A stretch of 64,000 nt of DNA from Malacoraja senta (taxonomy: Eukaryota), in assembly GCA_038087875.1 (NCBI GenBank), contig CM075988.1, forward strand, positions 4,836,001 through 4,900,000, given 5' to 3'. Numbering within the stretch: the stretch's first letter is position 1; every line of letters starts with the position of its first letter. Shown here piece by piece: positions 1,954-15,341 of this stretch. The notes beneath the pieces are model-generated. The model saw only the letters and a program-made list of their open reading frames with translations. It did no database searches and was not told where the DNA came from. A program made the translations under genes and the position numbers.

Positions 1954-2127
1954 TGTGCCTGTCCCACTTGGGAAACTTTTTAGGCGAGTGCAGGAGACTC
2001 TGTGCTCGCCACATGGTCGCCACATGTTTGCTGGTGGTCTCTGGTGAGTCTCCTTCATGGTCACGAGGAGTTCCCGCATTCTGGGAACTGGTCGAGGCCT
2101 CAGTATGGTCGCCGCAAATTTTTCAAC
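1954..2127. mobile_element. PIF/Harbinger-type MITE, left part (split by L1 pair)
   Basis: TAA then TGTGCCTGTCCCACTTGGG, matching the TIR AGGGCCTGTCCC(A/G)CTTGG of the intact MITE at 50307-50933. Confidence 0.7.
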
Positions 2128-2147
2128 ACTTCCGGTGACGCCATGTT
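2128..2147 (+). promoter_or_regulatory. Putative L1 internal promoter start (ETS- and YY1-like motifs)
   Basis: ACTTCCGG (ETS/GABP-like) immediately followed by CGCCATGTT (YY1-like) at the 5' edge; motif match only. Confidence 0.45.
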
Positions 2148-2377
2148 GCATTGAACAGATGTACCATTTAGCTCCGTGCCCGTAATTAGCGAATTTTCGC
2201 TTTAAAAATCATTTTGGAGTCGGGACCGGGTGAAAAAAATAACCGGTGGCGTCATGTTAGACTAACAGACGTGCACCCAGCTCCTCTCCCGAAAAACTTC
2301 ACGATTTATCGTGTAAAACGGGTCCGAAAATCGGGATTGTTTTTAAAAACCTTACCGGAGCTTCTGGTTACCGCGCT

Positions 2378-2389
2378 GATGACGTCATC
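2378..2389. promoter_or_regulatory. CRE palindrome in L1-A 5'UTR
   Basis: GATGACGTCATC; the same palindrome is kept in L1-B at 8541-8552 although neighbouring sequence has diverged. Confidence 0.5.
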
Positions 2390-2535
2390 GTTAAACGCGA
2401 TGTTTTAAACGGTGGTTTGAAGCCCTTTAAATGAGTAAATTGACTCCAGCTGTGAGCCCTCAGAGAGCTGTGAATAAGCTGTCGAAAAAGTTCGAAGCAG
2501 AAGTTACCTCTGAAGTCTCTGAAGTGGCTGCAGAA

Positions 2536-3496
2536 ATGGATACAAGATCTAAGAAAGACTTTGATGACTTGAAGAAATCAATGAAAAATTTGAAAGATCT
2601 CGGATAATAGGGTGGAAGATAAGAAGGAAATGAAGGAAAATTCGGCAAAAATGATGGAAGGAATGGAGAAGATGATGAAGGATTTAAACGCTGGTAACCA
2701 GAAGAATATGACGGATTTACTGGACATTATGAATAAACGAATTGATGAGGTGAAAGATGGACTATCAGAGAAAATGGATAAGATGGATGTAATTACTACG
2801 GATAAGTTCACGGCTGTACTTGAAACAGTAGCTGCAAGTATGCACACAATTACGGAATTGGAGAAAAATACGGCTCGACTGGTTGAAGACATGGCGAAAT
2901 TGAGGCAAGAACATGAGCAAATGAGGCGAGAAAACGAACAAGCATCACTACAAATGGGGACTCAATTAGAGAAAGTCTCATTCAAATGCCTGGACCTGGA
3001 AGCTCGCTCTAGACGCCAGAATTTGAGAATTCTTGGTGTTTCAGAGGGGGCAGAAGGGGAACAGGTACATGAATTTGCCATGGGCTTGTTGAAACAACTG
3101 TTGAATCTTTCCAAGGAACCGAAAATCGAAGTGGCTCATCGTGTCCCAAGATTTGGAAAAAGATCTGATGCGGGAAAAGCTTATCCACGACATATTATAG
3201 TGAAATTTCGAGATACTGCAGAACTGGAATACGTTATGAGTAAAATCAAATATGGTGTACAATTACGGCTGGACAAGGACACTATTAAGATATTCAGGGA
3301 CTACCCACATGAAATTGTGCAAAAAAGAAACAAATTTGATAAGGTTAAAGATCTTTTAAGAGGGAGAGAAGGGGTCAGATTTGGGGTTTTTTATCCCACG
3401 AAAATGCGTATTTCCTTTAATGGTCTTGAAAAGTCATTTGTTAAGCCTGAAGACGCTTTCAAATATGCCCAAACGATTGTTGAAAAACAGAAATAA
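2536..3496 (+). pseudogene. L1-A ORF1p (coiled coil + RRM/CTD, Transposase_22-like), one frameshift near 2594-2604
   Basis: DLEARSRRQNLRILG motif, heptad-rich N-terminus; ATG 2536 (AAATGGATACAAGAT) aligns with the L1-B ORF1 start (AAATGGCTACAAGAT) but is out of frame with 2612..3496. Confidence 0.88.
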
Positions 3497-4052
3497 AAGG
3501 GAGCTTTGGCAGATCCGAATAATTCTCAGCTATGTTTTGTCTGGGGATAGTTACACTGTTATCTCTGGAATGTTGAAGCAAGGACATTTTCTGTTCAAAA
3601 CGTGTAAACAACTTTATAGCTGGAATATGAATTAGAAAATAATTGCTTATTGATTAAAATGTTATAACCAATTGTAAGAACTTATCCTATTAACAACTTT
3701 AAAAGTTATGCAGGTTAGATTAGAATACTAACAAAAAAAACAAAAAAATAATGAACTAACATACTAATATGAATTTTTAATAAATTGTAACCTTGTCTAT
3801 AAGCGGGAGGAGGGGATGAGAAACGAGCTCCTGACTTATGTCCAGGAGCACGTCTCGTTAACCCCTTCAACCAACAGCTGATTCTTATTGAAATCAAAAA
3901 TATTGGTTTAATAATTAAACTCTGATATATATATATGTTATAAGGAAATATCAGGGTAAAATTGTATTATATATCTGAATGTGAGGCCTCGTTTTAATAT
4001 TTTAATATGTTATGATTAACTAAGAGAGCGGAGCTAGTTGAGCAACAACGCA

Positions 4053-4310
4053 ATGGAAGTCAAAATAAGGTTTTTTCCCACCTACAGGTGGGTCACTCGC
4101 TACAGTGCCGACTATAGACACTGTAGCCTCACTTTTTTAGTTTTTTTTTTATCACATAAAATTACTTGTTTGTGTTTTGTGTTTAGTGATAAGAATAATA
4201 TGGACATACCAACAAAAGTTAATAATTCAAAAACTCCCCCAATACCTAAAGACCTGGGATATGGACGCACCACAAGATTCAAAGGTACTATAATTATTCA
4301 AAATGCATGA
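4053..4310 (+). CDS. Candidate small inter-ORF protein of L1-A (85 aa), stop overlapping the ORF2 start
   Basis: MEVKIRFF...RHCSLTFLVFF...FVFS...KDLGY; a homologous frame stays open in L1-B (10428-10667); ATGcaTGA overlap with ORF2. Confidence 0.35.
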   Translation: MEVKIRFFPTYRWVTRYSADYRHCSLTFLVFFLSHKITCLCFVFSDKNNMDIPTKVNNSKTPPIPKDLGYGRTTRFKGTIIIQNA

Positions 4311-7300
4311 CACCACACAAAAGAACCTAGGAGGAATCTCATTTTGTAGTTGGAATATAAGAGGTATTAACGAACCTATCAAAAGGGGTAAGATATTAGC
4401 TCAGCTAAAAATGTATAATTCTGACATTACCTTCCTACAAGAAACACACCTAAAACCTCAGGACCAAGTTAGGCTGAGGGCGAAATGGATAGGTCAAACA
4501 TACCACTCTTCATTCACTTCAAAATCTAGAGGCACGTCAACTATCATAAGAAAAGGTATACCATTTAAAGCAAAGAATATTATAACAGATATAGAAGGGA
4601 GATACTTAATAGTTAATGGAGAAATCCATGACACTCCACTTACTTTGGTAAATATATATGCCCCTAACTTTGATAACCCCCACTTTTTCAATAAAATCTT
4701 CAATATAATTGCAGAGTCAAACTATCAAAATGTTATAATAGGCGGAGACTTTAACTGTGTTTTAGATCCGTACTTAGATAAATCAAGTCAAAAACAGAGA
4801 GGGAATATGAAATCGAAAACTGGGGAACTCCTCAATACCTACATAAATAACACTAATATAGCAGATGTTTGGAGAATTGTGAATCCAACTGGCAGGGAAT
4901 ATTCGTTTTACTCAATGGTACATAAGACATACTCACGTATAGACTACTTTCTGCTGGATACAAAATTAATCCCCCAAACATCTAATGCAATATACCATAC
5001 AAATTCAATTTCAGACCATTCTCCACTAACTTTCTTTTTAAAACTGGAAGGATTGTCTAAGAATAATTCATTCTGGAGATTTAACTCTCAAATTTTAAAA
5101 GATCCACAAGCGAGTATATATTTAAAAGAACAAATGGAGGTCTTTTTTCAAACAAATGATACTTCAGATATATCGCCTACTTTGGGAATCTTTTAAAGCA
5201 TACATTAGGGGTATTATAATTTCATATCAAGCTTTTCAAAATAAAAAGAATAAGAATGAACAAAGACAGTTAGAAGAACTTATTAGACAAATGGATATAG
5301 ATAATGCTAAAGATCCATCAATAGATAAACATAATAAAATAATAATTTTAAAATTTAAATTAAATAAATTATTATCTGCCAAACTTATAAGACTTTTTCA
5401 AATTACAAAACAAGAGCACTTTGAATTTGGGGATAAACCGCATAAACTTTTGGCTCGCCAGCTAAAAAAACGAGAAAAGGAACATACTATACCAAAGATC
5501 AAATCAGATAAAGGGGAATTATTAACAACACCGAAGGATATTAATAAAAGATTTGCGCAATTTTACGAGAATTTGTATACATCTAAAACGATAATTGATT
5601 CCAATAATATCACAAAGTTCTTGGATACCTGTAATCTTCCAAAGTTAGAGCTGAAGGAACAAGAGGAACTGGGTGCACAAATCTCAATTAAGGAATTAGA
5701 AGATACAATAAACTCACTAAAAAATGGAAAAACACCAGGCCCTGATGGATTTACTAATGAATTTTATAAAAGCTTTTATGATAAAATAATACCAAGATTA
5801 CAAAAAATGTACCAATACGCTTTTAAAAAACGAATACTACCTGATACATTAGCGGAATCAACGATTACATTAATACCTAAGAAAAATAAGGATTTAGAAG
5901 AACCTGGCTCATATAGAGCTATAGCATTGTTAAACACAGATCAAAAAATATTAGCGAAAACATTAGCCAGAAGATTAAGTAAATACATTAGTAAATTAAT
6001 AAACCCAGATCAGACAGGGTTTATCCCTAAGAGATACTCTTCTAATAATATGAGACGTCTACTCAACATAATGCACTCACACAAATCTGAAGATCAAGAA
6101 TTATCAATTATTTCGCTGGATGCTGAAAAAGCATTTGATCAAGTAGAATGGAATTATATGGATAAAGTATTACAAAAAATTCAACTGGGAGAGAATTTTA
6201 TTTTATGGATTAAGTTACTATATAACAAACCTACAGCTAGAATACTTACTAATAACATATTATCCTCGAAATTTCAACTATCAAGGGGAAATAGACAAGG
6301 ATGCTCATTATCACCACAGCTGTTTGCTCTCATTATTGAACCGCTAGCAGAAAAAATTAGAATACACCCTGATATTCATGGATATAATACTAAAGACTCA
6401 TATAATAAAATATCTTTATACGCGGATGATATATTATTGTATATTACAAAACCTCAAATCACTATACCAAATATATTAAATTTAATTGAAGACTTCGGAT
6501 CTTTTTCTGGATATAGAATAAATTGTAATAAAAGTGAAATTATGTCAATAAAACCGAAAGATTCAACACATCTTTTAAAATTCCCTTTTAAAATAGCTAC
6601 AGAAAAATTTAAATATTTGGGAATTGAAATTACCAGAGCATATCAAGGTATGTTCAGGGCAAATTTTGACCCCCTACTTAATAAACTGAATACATTAATT
6701 AAATTCTGGAAAACGCTCCCGATGTCTTTAATAGGCCGAATAAACGCAATAAAAATGATCTTTTTACCACAAATTTTATACCTATTTCAATCAATTCCTA
6801 TATACTTACCTAAGAAGTTTTTTAAAAAACTCGACTCAGATATCACTAATTTTATATGGGACTATAAATCACATAGAATACAAAAAACCCATCTGAATAA
6901 ATCTAAAGTATTGGGGGGTCTAGCACTACCTAATTTTATGTATTATTATTGGTCAGTAAATATTAAAAACATGATTCAACTGATGGATAACTCCGCCCAG
7001 CAAGTAGACTGGATTGTAATGGAGAAAGAGGATTGCTCCTCTAGAAACATTGGAGCGATCCTCCTCTCTCCAATGAAATTGAATAACATAAACTATAATA
7101 AGAACCCAATTATTCATAGTACAATCCGTATTTGGAAACAAATAAAACAAAATTTAAAATTAAGAAACTTATCACTTTTATTACCTATAGTCAATAACCC
7201 TTCGTTTAGTCCTTCTATTATAGATAAAGCTTATACACAATGGGATAGACTAGGAATTAAAACGCTTGGTGACTTGTATGAAACTGGAAAATTACTTTCA

Positions 7301-8089
7301 TTTCAACAATTACAAATAAAATATAAACTCGGAAATAATCAATATTTTAAATACTTTCAAATATGCGACTATTTGAAAAAATATACAAAAGATCATCATA
7401 ATAACCCAGCAGATGTACTGGACGAGGCAATGCAGATAAAAGCGGAATCAGCAAACTTAATATCATATTTGTACAATATTATCTTAAATGCACAAATACC
7501 ATCTACGGAGGGTATCAGAAGAGACTGGGAACAAGAGTTAGCTATTAAAATTTCAAAGGAAAGTTGGAATGAATACTTATTAAAAGTGCATAAATGCTCG
7601 ATTAATGTAAGACACACTTTAATACAATTTAAAATTTTACATAGATTATATTATTCGAAAACTAAAATTCATAAAATTTTCCCAAACGTATCATCTATTT
7701 GTGATAAATGTCAATCCCAAGAAGCAACTATAGCGCACTCATTTGTCTTCTGTACAAAAATTCAAAAATTTTGGAATGAAATTTTTGAAATCTTTACAAA
7801 GTTATTTAAAACAAGACTGATACCCAAAGCAGAATGGATTATCTTCGGAATAACGGAAGATGATCCAGAACTAAATGTGTTTCAAAAGAAATTAATGGAT
7901 TATGGGTTAATAACTGGAAAAAAGCTAATTCTAAAATTTTGGAAGAAGGCTCCAATACCAACTATAAATATGTGGATTTCAAATATGTTTGAAACATTAC
8001 ACCTTGAAGAGATAAGACTCCTCCTAGCAGGTAAACCAGATCACTTCCACCTGACGTGGTCTGCATTTATAGAATTATTACAAACATAG
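4303..8089 (+). pseudogene. L1-A ORF2p (APE endonuclease, reverse transcriptase, C-terminal CCHC), single frameshift near 5180
   Basis: WNIRG, LQETHL, GGDFN, SRIDY, SDH (APE); PGPDG, SLDAEKAFD, RQGCSLSP, LYADD, KYLG (RT); CDKC...H...C; ORFs 4303..5196 and 5156..8089 overlap at the lesion. Confidence 0.96.
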
Positions 8090-8481
8090 GGTGCAAAAGT
8101 ACTTTAAAAAAATAAAAAATTGAGGTCGGGTAAGGGGGGATGATAGTTGAAGAGTTGGTATGTCCTATTTACGTGATGCTCAAAAAAAAAAAACATTTGT
8201 TTCTCTTTTTTTCTCTTTCTCTTTTCTTTTCTTAGGGCCTATTTCTTAACTCTTTTTCTTTTTGTTTTTAATTTCGCTCTTATAGGGTCTTCGTCCTTTT
8301 TTGTTGTTACATTTTCTACACTTTTCTACACTTGCACTTTTTCCTTCACTTTCTTCTCTCTTTCAATCTTTTCTTTCTCTAGTGTAAAAAAATAAATAAA
8401 GGGAGTACATTAATTGTAAGAAGATATAAATGACGAGTATTAATGTATGTGGTTGTAATGTAATGTACTTCTAATAAATAA

Positions 8482-8516
<35 letters not shown>

Positions 8517-8747
8517 ACCGGAGCTGCTTGTCGCGGTGCTGATGACGTCATCAGAAATCGCCGCGAAAATAACGGAGGTTTAAACTATTTATGAATCAAA
8601 AAAACAACTCCCTGTCAGAGCCCTCAGAGATCTGTCTTCAAGCAGCTGCTGAAAAAACAGTCACCACCTGAAAAAATCCAAGAACCAGAAGAAGTATCTG
8701 CTGAACTTCAAGAACCTGAAGAAGCAACTGCTGTATTAGCCCTGAAA

Positions 8748-9665
8748 ATGGCTACAAGATTAAAGGCTGAAATGGCTGAAAAAGTTTTAAAGGACAAAGA
8801 GATTGAGGAAATTAAAACTTTGGTGAGTGACTTAAAAAATGAACTTCTGGCATGTAATAAAAGTATGATGGAGAGTATGATGGAGAACATGAACATCGGA
8901 AATCAGAGAGTAATTGATTCAATCGGTAATATAAATAAACGAATAGATGATGTTCATGGTGAATTATCTCTGAAAATTGATACAGTGGAAATAGACTGTA
9001 GTAATAAGTTGGATGTGGTCCACCAAACTGTTACAACATGCTGTACTGCCATTAAATATATGGAAATAGCAATGTTACAAATGGCTGAAGAAATGCAGAA
9101 AATCAAGAAGAATTATGCAGATGTCGTGGGTCAGCTGGCTAAAACGTCGGATAAATGCCTTGATTTGGAAGCAAGGTCAAGACGGCAGAATTTAAGAATA
9201 GTTGAAGTGTCAGAAGGAGAGGAGGGGGATGATCCCCAAGAGTACACTGCTAACTTACTTAAAAATATACTCAACCTGCCAGCTAAACCGAAAATAGAAG
9301 TGGCACGGCCAAATCGGCCAAAAACAAGGGCAAACATAAAAGGAGCTCCCCCACGACAGATCATTGTGAAATTTCGGGACATTTCAGCTTTGGAAGAGGC
9401 CATGAGAAAAATTCAGCACGGAAAGATTATGAAGTTTGGGACGGACACTATCAGACTTTTTAGAGACTATCCTTATGAAATTGCTAAAAAACGAGAAGCG
9501 TTTAAAAATACACAACAGATCTTGAAAGGGCACAGGGACATCAGATATGGGATAATTTATCCGGCTAAGATGATCATTACTTATAAACACACCGAACGCA
9601 AGTTTACTGATCCAGAAGCTGCTTATAAATATGCTCAAGACATCGTAAAGGAAATAGAGGCTTAA
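8748..9665 (+). CDS. L1-B ORF1p (305 aa, open)
   Basis: KCLDLEARSRRQNLRI, PKIEVA, IIVKFRD, FRDYP motifs shared with L1-A ORF1. Confidence 0.9.
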   Translation: MATRLKAEMAEKVLKDKEIEEIKTLVSDLKNELLACNKSMMESMMENMNIGNQRVIDSIGNINKRIDDVHGELSLKIDTVEIDCSNKLDVVHQTVTTCCTAIKYMEIAMLQMAEEMQKIKKNYADVVGQLAKTSDKCLDLEARSRRQNLRIVEVSEGEEGDDPQEYTANLLKNILNLPAKPKIEVARPNRPKTRANIKGAPPRQIIVKFRDISALEEAMRKIQHGKIMKFGTDTIRLFRDYPYEIAKKREAFKNTQQILKGHRDIRYGIIYPAKMIITYKHTERKFTDPEAAYKYAQDIVKEIEA

Positions 9666-10686
9666 GTAAAACATCACATCCTCAAGACAAGGTTTTTATT
9701 CTACAGACAACGGCTGAGGGAAGGTCGATAGAAATAACTTTTTAAATTTTAAGATGGCGCAGCTTCTCCATGTGCGGCTGTCTAGACTCTCTTATCTCCT
9801 CAAGGACAAATTCGGCTTCAACATGAGCGAAAGATGGAATAACAAGGGCGTGGCTGAAGGAGCAACCCAACGAAGATGGATGGGGAAAAAAATTCCTGAA
9901 TGAAAGGAATTTATCCCTACACTAATTCCATACTAACACAAAACTACTGAACTAATATAGTAATAGTAATTAAAGTTATCGAAATTAACACACTAACAGT
10001 AACAATAATTGATTTAAAATTGAATTGCTTAATTGTAAAAATGTAATAATTCATTATAAGGATTAACCCCCCCGGGTATGGGAGGAGGGGGGCTAAACAT
10101 AAGAAAATAGATTTACAATAAACTAACAAATTAATTTAGAACTTATGATAAGTTGTAGTTCAAATTTTGGGGAAGGAGGCGAGGAGATTCAGAAGCTTGG
10201 CAAATAGCCAGGTGCCTGAATCGGGTTAACCCCTTCCAACCAAAGGCAGATTAGTATGGAAGAGAAAGAAAATGTAATCATTGTTATTATAAGTAAATGG
10301 TAGATAATTTTGCAGATTATAGAAGTTTTATTTAGATATAAAGATATGACACATAAAATTTGGTTTGGTCCCAACTCCCTTTTGTAAGATTAATCAAGGG
10401 GACGGAGCTAAATGTAGATTAACAACTACGGAAGTCATTAAATATGTAACTACCACCAGTAGGTGGATAATTGGTCACAGTGTCGTTATTTTTAGACACT
10501 GTGACCTCACTTTTTTGATTTTTTTTAAATGTCACAATAATGTACACTTTTTTGTTTTTTCACTTAAGGACAATTTTGAGAGGGATGTAATAACTGAATT
10601 TATTATTGCAAATGCTCGCCCAACAGCCAGAGACCTTAGGTATTGTTTGCACCTTAAAGGTGTTTAAAGGTATTAAATAATTCAAA

Positions 10687-13600
10687 ATGCAAGATGATAA
10701 ACAAAAGAAATTTGGAGGAATCACATTCTGCAGTTGGAATATTAGGGGTGCTAATGAACCAATTAAAAGGGGTAAGATTCTTGCACAATTGAAGTCACTC
10801 AAGACGGATGTAATATTCCTACAAGAAACTCACTTGAAACTACAAGCCCAAGCCAGATTGACGGCAAACTGGATAGGCCAAACATACCAATCTTCATATA
10901 TTTCCAAAGCTAGAGGCACAGCCATCATTATTCGAAAAGGTATACCATTTAAATCGAAGAATATCATGACAGATAAGGAAGATTCATGCTACCCCAATTA
11001 CCTTGGTAAATATTTATGCGCCTAATTTTGATAATCCTCAATTCTTTCATAAAACTCTTAATATAATTACAGAGTTCAATTATCAAAATGTGATAATTGG
11101 GGGAGATTTTAACTGTGTTTTATAGATCCATATTTGGATAAATCTTCACAACAGAGTAGGGGCAACATAAAATCTAAAACCAGGGAAATCTTAAATACTT
11201 ACATAAAAAATACAAATATAACAGATGTTTGGAGGATCGCTAACCCTGTCGGAAGGGAATACTCGTTTTATTCAATGGTACACAAAACTTATTCACGTAT
11301 CGACTATTTTTTAGTGGATACAAAATTAATTCCCTATACAATGAATCCAAAATATCACAATAGTATAATTTCTGATCATTCCCTGTTAACTTTTTCTTTA
11401 AAATTAGAGGGAATGCCTTCTAATAAATCGTTTTGGAGGTTTAATCCTCAAATCTTAAATGACCCACAAGGGGAAATATATTTAAAACAACAGATGGAAC
11501 TTTTTTAAAGAATAATGACACCCCAGATATTTCACCAGTTCTACTATGGGAATCATTCAAAGCAGTTATTAGAGGATCTATAATCTCATACCAAGCTTTT
11601 TTGAATAAAAGGAATAAGAAAGAACAAAGGCAGTTAGAAGAACGAATTAGAGATTTGGAATTAGACAATGCTAAAGAGCCTACTATAGATAAACATAATA
11701 AAATAACAATAAGGAAATTTAAATGAAACAAAATATTATCAGCAAATGTTATTAGATTATTTCAAATCACAAAACAGGAACATTTTTAATTTGGGGATAA
11801 ACCACATAAGCTTCTGGCTCGACAACTGAAGAAACGTGAAAAGGATCACACGATTTTAAAGAATAAATCAGATAAAGGGGAATTGTTAACACTTCCTAAG
11901 GATATTAACAAAAGATTCGCTCAATTTTATCAAAATTTATATACATCTAAAGCGGTAGCAGATAGTACCAAAGTTAGAGAGTTCCTGGATAATTGTAATC
12001 TCCCAAAACTCAATATGAGTGAACAAGAGGAACTAGGTGCACGAGTCTCAACCAAGGAAATAGAAGAAACAATAAATACATTAAAGAATGGAAAAACTCC
12101 AGGACCAGATGGTTTTAGCAATGAATTTTATAAAAGATTTTACGAGATAATTACACCACGACTACATAAAATGTATACATATGCCTTTAAAGAACATACA
12201 CTTCCAGAAACATTGGCGGAGTCAACGATTACACTTATACCTAAAAAAGGTAAAGATTTAGAAGATCCGGGTTCTTATAGAGCTATTGCGCTGCTAAACA
12301 CAGATCAAAAAATATTAGCGAAAACATTAGCTAGAAGGCTAAGTAACTATGTCAGTAAATTGATAAATCCGGATCAAACAGGGTTTATACCCAAGAGATA
12401 CTCAAGCAATAATCTGAGACGTCTGTTTAATATAATGCACTCACATAAAACCGAAGAGCAAGACATCAATTATTTCACTGGACGCAGAAAAAGCATTTGA
12501 TCAAGTGGAATGGGATTATATGGTTAAAGTATTGCAAAAATTTCAAATGGGTGATAATTTTATCGCTTGGGTAAAATTATTATATGATAGGCCTACGGCC
12601 AGAATATTAACTAATAATATTTTGTCCTCGAAATTTCAGTTATCAAGGGGAAATAGACAGGGGTGTTCATTATCACCTCTGCTATTTGCTCTGGTAATAG
12701 AACCGTTAGCGGAAAGTATTAGGATACATCCGAATATTCATGGATATAATACAAAATATTCAAATAATAAGATATCTTTATATGCAGATGATGTACTACT
12801 ATATATTACAAAATCACAAATTAGTATACCAAATATATTAAATTTAATTGAGGAATTTGGATCCTTCTCAGGATATAGAATAAATTGGAATAAAAGTGAA
12901 ATTATGACGATTAAACCTCAAGAATCGACACACCTGTTAAAATTCCCTTTTAAAATCGCTTCAGAAAAATTTAAATATTTGGGAATTTAAATTACTAGAA
13001 AATATAAATCTCTATTTAATGCAAACACTATGCCCTTACTCAATAAATTAAACACATTAATTAAATTCTGGAAAACCCTCCCGATGTCTCTTATAGGCCG
13101 AATAAATGCTATAAAAATGATTTTTTTTACCACAAATTTTATATTTATTCCAGTCAATACTGATATACTTACCAAAAAATTTTTTTTTAAAATTGGATGC
13201 CGATATTACAAATTTTATATGGGACTATAAATCCCACAGAATTCAAAGAAAACATTTGTGCAAACCTAAGGAATTTGGTGGATTATCACTTCCCAATTTT
13301 TTATATTATTATTGGGCCACAAATGTCAAAAATATGATTCACCTGTTGGACAATTCGGCCCAACGGGTGGATTGGATAGTAATGGAGAGAGAGGACTGTT
13401 CCCCTTTTAATATAGGAGCGATCCTTCTCTCACCAACAAAAATAAAGAATACAATATATAGTAAAAATTCAATTATTTATAGTACAATTAGAATTTGGAA
13501 ACAAATAAAATTAACGTTAAAATTAAGAAATCTATCACTACTTTCTCCTATAATGAATAACCCTGTGTTTAAACCTTCTATGATAGATAGAGCTTTTATA

Positions 13601-14452
13601 AATTGGGAAAGAGTAGGAATTAAAACGTTTGGAGATATGTATGATAATGGAAGTTTTTTAACATTTAATCAATTACAACTTAAATACAACTTGAATAGTA
13701 ATCAATATTTTAAATATTTTCAACTACGTGATTATTTGAAAAAGTACACACGAGAATATCAAAATATGTCTCCTGGCCTATTAGATGGGATAATGAATAT
13801 AAAAGCGGAATCAGCTAATTTAATATCATACCTATACAACTCCATTTTAAACATAGAAATTCCAGCATCGGACGGGATTAGAAGAGAATGGGAACAGGAA
13901 CTAGCTATAAAAATCTCGAAAGAGAGTTGGGATAGACATCTATTATATGTGCATAAATGTTCGATTAACGTAAGACATACTCTGATTCAATTTAAAATTT
14001 TACATAGATTATATTATTCAAAAGCTAAATTAAGTAAATGTTACCCTAATACCTCGGCTAACTGTGATAAATGCCTAGTCCAAGAATCAACTATAGCACA
14101 TTCTTTTGTCTTTTGTATAAAAATTCAAAAATTTTGGAATGACATTTTTGAAATTTTCTCTAAATTATTTAAAATAAAACTGAAACCGAATGCAGAACTG
14201 ATTATTTTTGGAACAACAGAAGCAAGTTCGGAGCTGACTGCGGTTCAAAGGAGTTTTCTTAGTTATGGTTTATTAACGGCAAAAAAACTGATATTGAAAT
14301 TTTGGAAAAATGCCCCTACGCCAACAATAAAAATGTGGACTTCTAATATGTCGGAATTGTTACATTTAGAAGATATGAGATTCCTCCTAGAAGGTAAACA
14401 AGACCAATTCCAAAAGATTTGGTCTCCATATGTCGACTTATTACAAACATAG
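10687..14452 (+). pseudogene. L1-B ORF2p, multiple frameshifts/stops and a short deletion near 10980
   Basis: Fragments 10687, 11134, 11883, 12505, 13030, 13193 are collinear with L1-A ORF2 (WNIRG, LYADD, CDKC, ...LLQT stop). Confidence 0.95.
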
Positions 14453-14798
14453 GGTGCTACAAAATGTTGATAATAAATGGTTTTAGGACCTGGCGAGGGG
14501 TGAGTAAAGATAAGAAGTAGACACATCCCTTTCATATTGTCCTATCTTATTTTCTTTTTTCTCTTTTTTTCTTTTCTTCTTTAACTACTTCTTGTGGTTT
14601 AGGTTCACAAGAGTGTTCCTGGACCACTTTCATTCACTCACTGACTATCTTTGCTAGCTCTTTCTATCCTTCTTTCTATTAAAGTTGAAAAACAGAAGTG
14701 GTACAAGAATTGTATAAAATTATGTTATGTTATTGCAGATAACTGTAATGTAAAATACTTCTAATTTAAAAAAAAAACTAAAATAAAAAATATATATA

Positions 14799-15341
14799 TT
14801 GGTCGCCATGGAGAAAATCGATAATCCTGTAGTCGTAGGTGCAGTTGTAGTGGGGTCGTCATGTAGTTGTAGGTAGTGGAGGTAGTCAAGGTAGTCGTAG
14901 GTAGTTTTAGTGAATCGCCTTTGCTGACCGGTCATTTTCATTGGCTCATTGGGGAAAACAAAACGTAAGCAGGAGTTTTCAGAACCAAGGATAACCGACC
15001 GGTAATGGCCTCCAAACTTCACAGCTGTGTATCTCTGGCTTATTAAAAATTTGTCTGGCTTCTTAAAAGATGTCTACACTCCTTCTCCCCCCCTCTCCCC
15101 CCTTCTCTCTCCTTATCCCCCCTCTTTTAAAGGACTTACCATACACTGTGCTAGTCTTAATTGCAGCGCCAACCTTCCTGTTCATCGCGGTGTGTGTCTG
15201 TATCACCCTGAATTTGTACCATGTGAATTTCAGACAGCGCTCCCCCGCTTGCCCTGGCCCCCACCTTTGCGATGTGTTTGTGTGTGTGTGTTCCACTCTG
15301 ACAGTCGCCAGCAGTCCGCTGAAAAATCGCCTAAGTGGTAC
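14799..15341. mobile_element. PIF/Harbinger-type MITE, right part
   Basis: Ends CGCTGAAAAATCGCCTAAGTGG, approximate reverse complement of the left end at 1962-1986; outermost TIR bases lost. Confidence 0.6.

Follow-up and report, generated by a model that had tools for sequence, protein, structure and literature searches.

How L1 retrotransposons translate ORF2 across the 0.3-1 kb spacers of fish, frogs, lizards and basal mammals is a standing question. In human L1, ORF2 is described as the product of unconventional termination-reinitiation (Alisch et al. 2006, as cited in PMC5972666 and PMC4072516); in reviews, reinitiation is called improbable at spacer lengths of 0.3-1 kb, and the current proposal is a predicted IRES (PMC5381506, PMC3894237). 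The DNA analysed here (the window, a 64-kb stretch of Malacoraja senta) contains a head-to-tail pair of L1 elements, L1-A (about 2130-8513) and then L1-B (from about 8514), and the spacer of each carries an additional open frame that leads up to ORF2. The question raised by this locus is whether such a third ORF is a selected feature, and what it could do for ORF2.

Membership of the L1 clade is indicated by a PF03372 match for the APE endonuclease of ORF2 (E 3e-17), a poly(A) near 8490-8513 and a reverse transcriptase part recognised by its motifs, and PF02994 of Pfam matched ORF1 weakly (E 0.005, below cutoff). No further pieces matching L1-A ORF2 were found in the 64-kb window. Within 8490-8520 the poly(A) tail of L1-A directly adjoins the start of L1-B, so that two families stand in tandem. 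The parts of the two elements are listed below, where the letters A to H denote groups of L1 copies in this genome.

2594-3496, + strand: L1-A ORF1, open 3' part, with a frameshift break near 2600 and the weak, sub-cutoff PF02994 match
3497-4302, + strand: L1-A intergenic spacer, 806 nt, with 13 AUGs between the ORF1 stop and the third ORF (10.7 expected)
3802-3880, + strand: long predicted spacer hairpin, with an L1-B counterpart of different arms at 10167-10242 (z -4.9 and -5.0), not consistent across other groups
4050-4060, + strand: start block NNN-(ATG/ACG)-GAA-GT of groups A-E (AAG in D); TTG/CTG/TCG-GAA-GT in group H
4053-4310, + strand: third ORF of L1-A, 85 codons, frame -1 relative to ORF2, start GCA ATG G
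4077-4092, + strand: predicted hairpin 1, CCAC..GTGG core, about 24 nt 3' of the start codon, near-invariant in groups A-E
4099-4127, + strand: predicted hairpin 2, at the same site in groups A-E with differing arms; its 3' arm is the "RHC" block
4255-4259, + strand: UGGGA, like TURBS motif 1, 53 nt 5' of the stop; in 93 of 101 A-group copies, missing in most other groups
4303-4310, + strand: stop-start junction AUGcaUGA, with the geometry of AUGucUGA of RHDV (PMC3542737)
4303-8089, + strand: L1-A ORF2 (endonuclease-reverse transcriptase), frameshift near 5190
8595-9665, + strand: L1-B ORF1, an open reading frame
10428-10676, + strand: third ORF of L1-B from ACT ACG G; family stop TAA at 10674-10676, private earlier stop at 10665-10667 in the window copy
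10453-10506, + strand: L1-B hairpin 1 (10453-10466) and hairpin 2 (10473-10506), predicted folds
10687-14452, + strand: L1-B ORF2, open reading frames with several frameshifts

The initial annotation had proposed a third ORF at 4053-4310, and this ORF exists: it has 85 codons, and its TGA (4308-4310) begins 5 nt downstream of position 4303, the A of the ORF2 ATG. The matching stretch of L1-B (10428-10667) is open as well, with ACT ACG G where L1-A has GCA ATG G. The gaps between the anchor blocks are indeed +1, -1 and +2 codons, and the two peptides are 41% identical over 64 columns in BLASTP. The caveat that the 3' ends differ in frame was mistaken, because both stops lie in frame -1 relative to ORF2 (4308 against 4303; 10665 against 10687). 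The position of the L1-B stop upstream of ORF2 was correctly read in the window copy (22 nt before ORF2), but that stop is private, and other B copies read through to -13.

Several other observations concern the two elements and their copies. The 5' end of L1-A (2128-2360) apparently carries a tandem unit of about 115 nt, as one stretch of copy L328 matches both 2128-2246 and 2243 onward. The sequences ACCGGAGCT and GCTGATGACGTCATC are common to the 5' ends of L1-A and L1-B, and CGGAGC, from the L1 5' ends, is found again just 5' of the third-ORF start. In the L1-B spacer, AAGATGGCG (9753-9761) is kept in the B copies shown and resembles a YY1 site. Near-identical pieces of L1-A, from 3742-4697, occur in low-depth contigs of sequencing runs labelled organisms B, C and D (for example, 554 nt with 3 differences) and may come from close relatives or carry-over; contigs from four sequencing runs yielded no informative joint.

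To follow the frame through this genome, 189 loci were gathered by DNA and pattern searches, and the 180 with an endonuclease anchor were clustered into nine groups and four singletons, with 50-84% identity between groups; group A2 was added later. Three singletons and the copies without a placeable ORF2 ATG were left out. Of the 141 copies of nine groups (a count that omits 30 near-identical A copies), 77 keep frame -1 open over 55 codons or more, against 4 for frame 0 and 4 for frame +1. The third ORF measures 72-96 codons in groups that are not all homologous: groups A-E are of common ancestry, and the spacers of F, G and H have no evident homology to them. The modal stop relative to the ORF2 AUG is +5 (A, F, G, H), +8 (D) or +11 (A2), and in the groups that stop 5' of the AUG it is -4 (C), -10 (E1, E2) or -13 (B). 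All ten values thus fall between -13 and +11, within the distance of about 20 nt between stop and start given for TURBS-type reinitiation in PMC10275272.

Frame retention, a check that the initial annotation had suggested, is borne out: between subfamilies, counted by alignment column, stops occur in 16 of 1,297 aligned codon pairs, compared with 116 of 1,275 and 95 of 1,280 in the other frames. Among six A subfamilies (clusters of three or more copies, taking in 91 of 101 copies) that are 6-10% apart, no stop is found in 411 codon pairs (10 and 43 in the other frames), and the modal distances from start to AUG (253, 256, 259 and 265) are all 1 mod 3, differing by whole codons. Group D is the weakest, with 2 of 12 copies intact, stops in 1 of 239 column-wise codon pairs and distances of 1 mod 3 in only 3 of 11; the distances in group F are mixed. 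At 0.4 neutral substitutions per site, an 85-codon frame has a survival probability of 0.02-0.09 per lineage, before indels are considered.

Two variants of the junction were seen among the copies. In six A-group copies (L307, L310, L327, L347, L348 and L383) the third ORF has moved into the ORF2 frame with its stop 12 nt before the AUG, which may be a subfamily variant preserving the stop-start spacing. In L032 and most group B copies, the last 25 nt before ORF2 contain an in-frame ATG five codons before the family stop, giving a minimal MFKRY ORF that is missing from the window's L1-B copy.

L1s of other hosts were collected from metagenome contigs, in which repeats are possibly collapsed. 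An earlier scan using a single protein had found nothing; the scan with an endonuclease alignment gave 80 loci, of which 69 had the motif and 52 an ATG preceded by at least 450 nt, leaving 44 non-redundant elements with a median endonuclease identity of 37%. An out-of-frame stretch of at least 60 codons ending between -20 and +26 of the ORF2 AUG is present in 34 of the 44, against 4.8-5.6 in dinucleotide shuffles, and the excess persists at thresholds of 50 and 75 codons. When in-frame ORFs stopping just upstream are included, the count is 36 of 44 (at least 60 codons) against 8.0-8.7 in local block shuffles (maximum 18); 8 of the 44 have no such frame. With the anchor moved upstream, only 3-5 of 32-44 elements have one. 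Both other frames contain stops in all 36 frame-bearing elements, and the AUG-started length is at least 50 codons in 32 of them. The frame is found in non-homologous spacers and stands in differing frames (-1, +1 and 0) relative to ORF2; in three elements, L260, L291 and L246, a long upstream frame lies in the ORF2 frame with its stop 3-12 nt before the AUG.

The junctions themselves are not randomly placed. AUGnnSTOP (9) and AUG-n5-STOP (7) are the commonest, and UAAUG and AUGA also occur; among the frames that run over the AUG, 23 of 35 stop within +11 (8.6 expected), with clustering at +5/+8 (p 4e-7). In-frame AUGs are enriched in the 5' part of the frame (53 vs 43 in the two other frames, the latter count being somewhat depressed by conditioning on a stop-free frame). 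A favourable Kozak context is not enriched at the first AUG of the frame (purine at -3 in 50% vs 41%, p 0.35), and the 36 elements yielded no shared structure profile.

The codon at the start of the third ORF varies among the groups. In the A group, of which 90 copies were taken in genome order, 78 of 80 motif-bearing copies have ATG with a purine at -3. ACG stands there in 29 of 30 B, 11 of 13 C and 12 of 15 E copies, and in 23 of 23 A2 copies, which were found by an ACG pattern and are hence not independent. Group H has TTG (7), TCG (3) or CTG (1) after ACT or GCT, group G has AAA ATG in 7 of 8, and group F, read by eye, has GAG ATG G with ATT and ACG variants. Group D has AAG in 11 of 11, a poor start. 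On the 5' side of the start block the frame is not kept, with a 1-nt shift in B and a TAG in many A copies. Initiation at near-cognate codons is known where the context is strong and a hairpin follows (PMC3542737). Of these features, a purine at -3, G at +4 and the hairpin are seen in A2, B, E and H, and C and D have a pyrimidine at -3; the hairpin lies at about +22 to +25 from the candidate near-cognate start, not at +14.

Two hairpins are predicted after the start in groups A-E, at about +24 and +46. Hairpin 2 has one set of arms in A/B, another in C/D and a third in E, and in A/B four of its pairs are changed on both sides. RNAalifold on C, D and E recovered hairpin 1 alone, its pairs being invariant and not covarying, and gave no consensus hairpin 2. 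The initial annotation had warned that RNA structure may explain some of the conservation; on the predicted folds this holds for the conserved RW and RHC blocks, which are hairpin arms, but not for the open frame. Two further candidates were dropped: recent CpG decay as the source of the A-group ATG, as ATG is kept in five of six A subfamilies, and a branch point with a 3' splice site at the CCTCAC/T-run, which is not kept in groups C-E.

Selection on the peptide was compared with selection on ORF2. Among the six A subfamilies the third ORF has a dN/dS of 0.92 against 0.12 in ORF2, with changes at the three codon positions of 23/15/19. In the pooled subfamilies dN/dS is 0.70, inside the range of non-coding controls (0.57-0.91), and the positions are flat (120/134/124); for the ORF2 endonuclease the same comparison gives 0.26 and 55/44/92. 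A dN/dS well below 1 with a third-position excess is therefore absent from the third ORF, with group F (0.34) as the exception. Compensating non-triplet indels separate intact copies (in pairs chosen for being intact), and the spacer evolves slowly at all sites. The dN/dS values and the flat codon positions, together with an in-frame hydrophobicity not above that of the other frames (p 0.15), speak against the small hydrophobic peptide that the initial annotation had offered as one function. A dN/dS near 1, named there as a refuting outcome, is what was found for the peptide, and it leaves a bridging function unrefuted.

Searches with the peptide gave little. The protein search with the A peptide returned no candidate at near lengths, the Pfam scan of six spacer peptides no family, and the ESM Atlas no usable match. 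A profile search of 1.84 billion proteins had four matches, two of which are true relatives, P0001 (E2-like) and P0004 (C-like), both in Logan only; the other two were repeat-rich chance matches. The AlphaFold model of the third-ORF peptide is one long helix with a mean pLDDT of 57 and is uninformative.

As far as sequence comparison can tell, what is kept is the start (AUG or ACG/UUG/CUG), the openness and the stop position, and not the peptide. The features under selection, namely a start, the absence of stops and an end at the ORF2 AUG in any frame, are those of a translated track and match the layout of termination-reinitiation. We infer that the third ORF is probably a stop-start reinitiation bridge that delivers ribosomes to ORF2. 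Ribosomes translating the frame of about 75-95 codons would terminate beside the ORF2 AUG and re-initiate there, the frame would be a delivery track for ORF2 and its peptide mostly dispensable. ACG, UUG or CUG would act as starts, aided by the hairpins just 3', and termination-reinitiation would also hold ORF2p scarce. The bridging uORF of the initial annotation thus gains support from the conservation of frame, start and stop position in ten groups, from the 36 of 44 unrelated L1s, and from stops that lie nearer to the AUG than expected by chance (the 23 of 35 within +11).

The weak link is how ribosomes reach the third-ORF start. It sits 550-760 nt after the ORF1 stop, past 13-15 AUGs. The stretch leading from ORF1 to the third ORF shows no depletion of AUGs (265 in 26 elements, where 224 are expected), and ribosomes that simply scan on from ORF1 therefore do not arrive at the third ORF. 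Reinitiation after a long ORF normally requires a tether. The calicivirus-type TURBS motif 1, UGGGA, is found in only 8 of 46 elements overall (2.5 expected), and the region of motif 2/2* (4200-4320) folds weakly (z +2.0, empty centroid). Access might be by relay over short ORFs, by shunt or by internal entry. The tight length of 72-96 codons, which a pure bridge leaves unexplained, and the dN/dS of group F count against this function in its pure form; the AAG start and off-phase distances of group D and its few intact copies also count against it. The feature is nevertheless real, selected and apparently widespread, and its mechanism is probably a variant of termination-reinitiation.

Other explanations of the third ORF differ in how much of this they can accommodate. 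That it is an untranslated by-product of conserved RNA structure, T-rich composition or common ancestry is largely refuted, and we consider it barely credible: the conserved blocks are indeed hairpin arms, all sites of the spacer evolve slowly and groups A-E share an ancestor, but only one frame is open (77 vs 4 and 4), composition-preserving shuffles give 8.5 of 44 and not 36, the frame recurs in non-homologous spacers in all three frames, and survival over 85 codons at 0.4 substitutions per site is as improbable as given above (0.02-0.09 per lineage). A fast-evolving small hydrophobic protein, acting in trans or as a nascent chain in cis (ribosome pausing, membrane docking of L1 RNA), with ORF2 coupling secondary, is unlikely, though it would account for the length kept in non-homologous groups. 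Consistent with it, hydropathy exceeds 1.6 over a window of 19 residues in 37 of 46 peptides, with its peak 45-59 codons ahead of the stop; group F combines its dN/dS of 0.34 with positions 8/11/19; and two intact relatives, P0001 and P0004, exist among predicted proteins. The dS of the frame is low (0.05 vs 0.15 in ORF2), and dN/dS is blunted because dS itself is low. Yet dN/dS is 0.92 in A, 1.12 in B and 0.7-0.8 in C, D, E and H, not below that of other frames; the T-richness of the whole spacer makes the other frames equally hydrophobic (38 of 46, p 0.15); T is about as frequent at codon position 2 as at position 3 (0.41 vs 0.40); local frameshifts are tolerated; residue E2 alone is invariant among 16 peptides; and no Pfam family is matched.

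Two further explanations were weighed. The third ORF could be a repressive uORF that overlaps ORF2 and diverts ribosomes, keeping ORF2p low, with ORF2 reached by internal entry or leaky scanning. Its stop overlaps the AUG in 35 of 38 out-of-frame cases, weak near-cognate starts would permit leakage, and an IRES is predicted in 32 of 36 long spacers (PMC5381506), which fit this arrangement; we regard it as quite improbable, since repression does not require a stop near the AUG and the stops cluster at +5/+8 (p 4e-7), groups B, C and E stop before the AUG, no fold signal is seen beside the ORF2 AUG (z near 0), and loss of spacer AUGs lowered activity in the megabat element (PMC4072516). Very unlikely, in our judgement, is a separate RNA, in which the frame is a spliced exon extending ORF1 or the first ORF of a shorter, internally promoted transcript. 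Such an RNA would remove the access problem, and several groups have pyrimidine runs followed by AAG upstream. By eye, however, no YAG acceptor of constant phase is seen, and the 90 A-group copies contain neither a precise deletion from ORF1 to the frame nor 5' ends at its start. Six of about 25 truncated A-group copies have their 5' ends within 3639-3718, a marginal concentration in an AT-rich stretch of 80 nt; these truncations could reflect shorter transcripts, but no site is common to their junctions, and several AUGs remain upstream. CGGAAGT at the third-ORF start resembles an ETS site, but it becomes TGGAAGT or AGGAAG in A, D and H with the near-cognate reading retained. The enrichment of in-frame AUGs also argues against a separate RNA.

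The third ORF as a reinitiation bridge can be compared with several known systems. With human L1 it shares an ORF2 that is thought to require termination of an upstream ORF near its AUG; there the upstream ORF is ORF1 itself, 63 nt away, whereas here ORF1 ends 0.3-1.5 kb away and a separate ORF of about 85 codons reaches the AUG. The megabat L1 also has a long spacer whose AUGs and 3' third aid retrotransposition: removing the spacer AUGs lowered it 3.3-fold, deleting the 3' third 6.9-fold and shuffling 8.8-fold (PMC4072516), which would fit a bridge. Yang et al. (2014) invoke small spacer ORFs and reinitiation for this element (PMC4072516); as far as their account of the spacer goes, they describe no single conserved long ORF that ends at ORF2 and give no analysis of frame conservation. 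The TURBS of caliciviruses and influenza B likewise have stop and start within about 20 nt (PMC3542737, PMC10275272), and the AUGnnUGA geometry of RHDV is the commonest junction type here, but in the viruses, as described there, the upstream ORF encodes a major protein and UGGGA motif 1 is required, compared with 8 of 46 here.

SART1 is another non-LTR retrotransposon with ORF2 made by stop-start coupling, through UAAUG (Kojima et al. 2005, as cited in PMC10275272 and PMC3894237); in those accounts it differs in having no spacer and no third ORF, and in needing structure 3' of the junction, for which no signal is seen here. The predicted L1 IRES concerns the same region and the same question. 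Boissinot and Sookdeo (2016) predict dicistrovirus-like IRESs in long L1 spacers, no more than 10 nt from the ORF2 AUG, and regard long spacers as the ancestral state in vertebrates (PMC5381506). The main text of that study mentions no spacer ORF; here the stretch before the AUG is unstructured and lies inside the open frame. In the last 160 nt before the AUG, 70-nt windows have z near 0 (in a model that excludes pseudoknots), unlike what an IGR IRES would give, and an Rfam scan of 2000-15000 returned no IRES match and four chance-level matches. The ORF0 of primate L1, also a small extra ORF, is antisense and lies in the 5' UTR, whereas the third ORF here lies within the spacer in sense orientation, and its position is bound to the ORF2 start.

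That ORFs in the spacer help reinitiation has already been suggested by Yang et al. (2014). Among the openly accessible main texts consulted, none describes a conserved third ORF in L1 spacers. A more far-reaching proposal, which we think unlikely, is that long-spacer L1s, the ancestral form in vertebrates, are functionally tricistronic. The third ORF would be an obligatory gate to ORF2, often with a near-cognate start, and its hydrophobic nascent chain of about 85 residues would act in cis, by ribosome pausing or by docking of the L1 RNA at the ER, with the result that ORF2p is produced on, and loaded onto, the RNA that encodes it. Mammalian L1s with short spacers would have lost the third ORF, with ORF1 taking over the role.

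If the third ORF is a reinitiation bridge, a selected frame that runs to the ORF2 AUG would bring long spacers into line with the reinitiation model for human L1, would explain why the long spacer is not simply deleted, and would account for the megabat mutant results. Such a bridge would also lend itself to tests by point mutation. It would further be a clear case of selection on the translation of a frame without selection on its peptide, in which start codons interchange among AUG, ACG, UUG and CUG.
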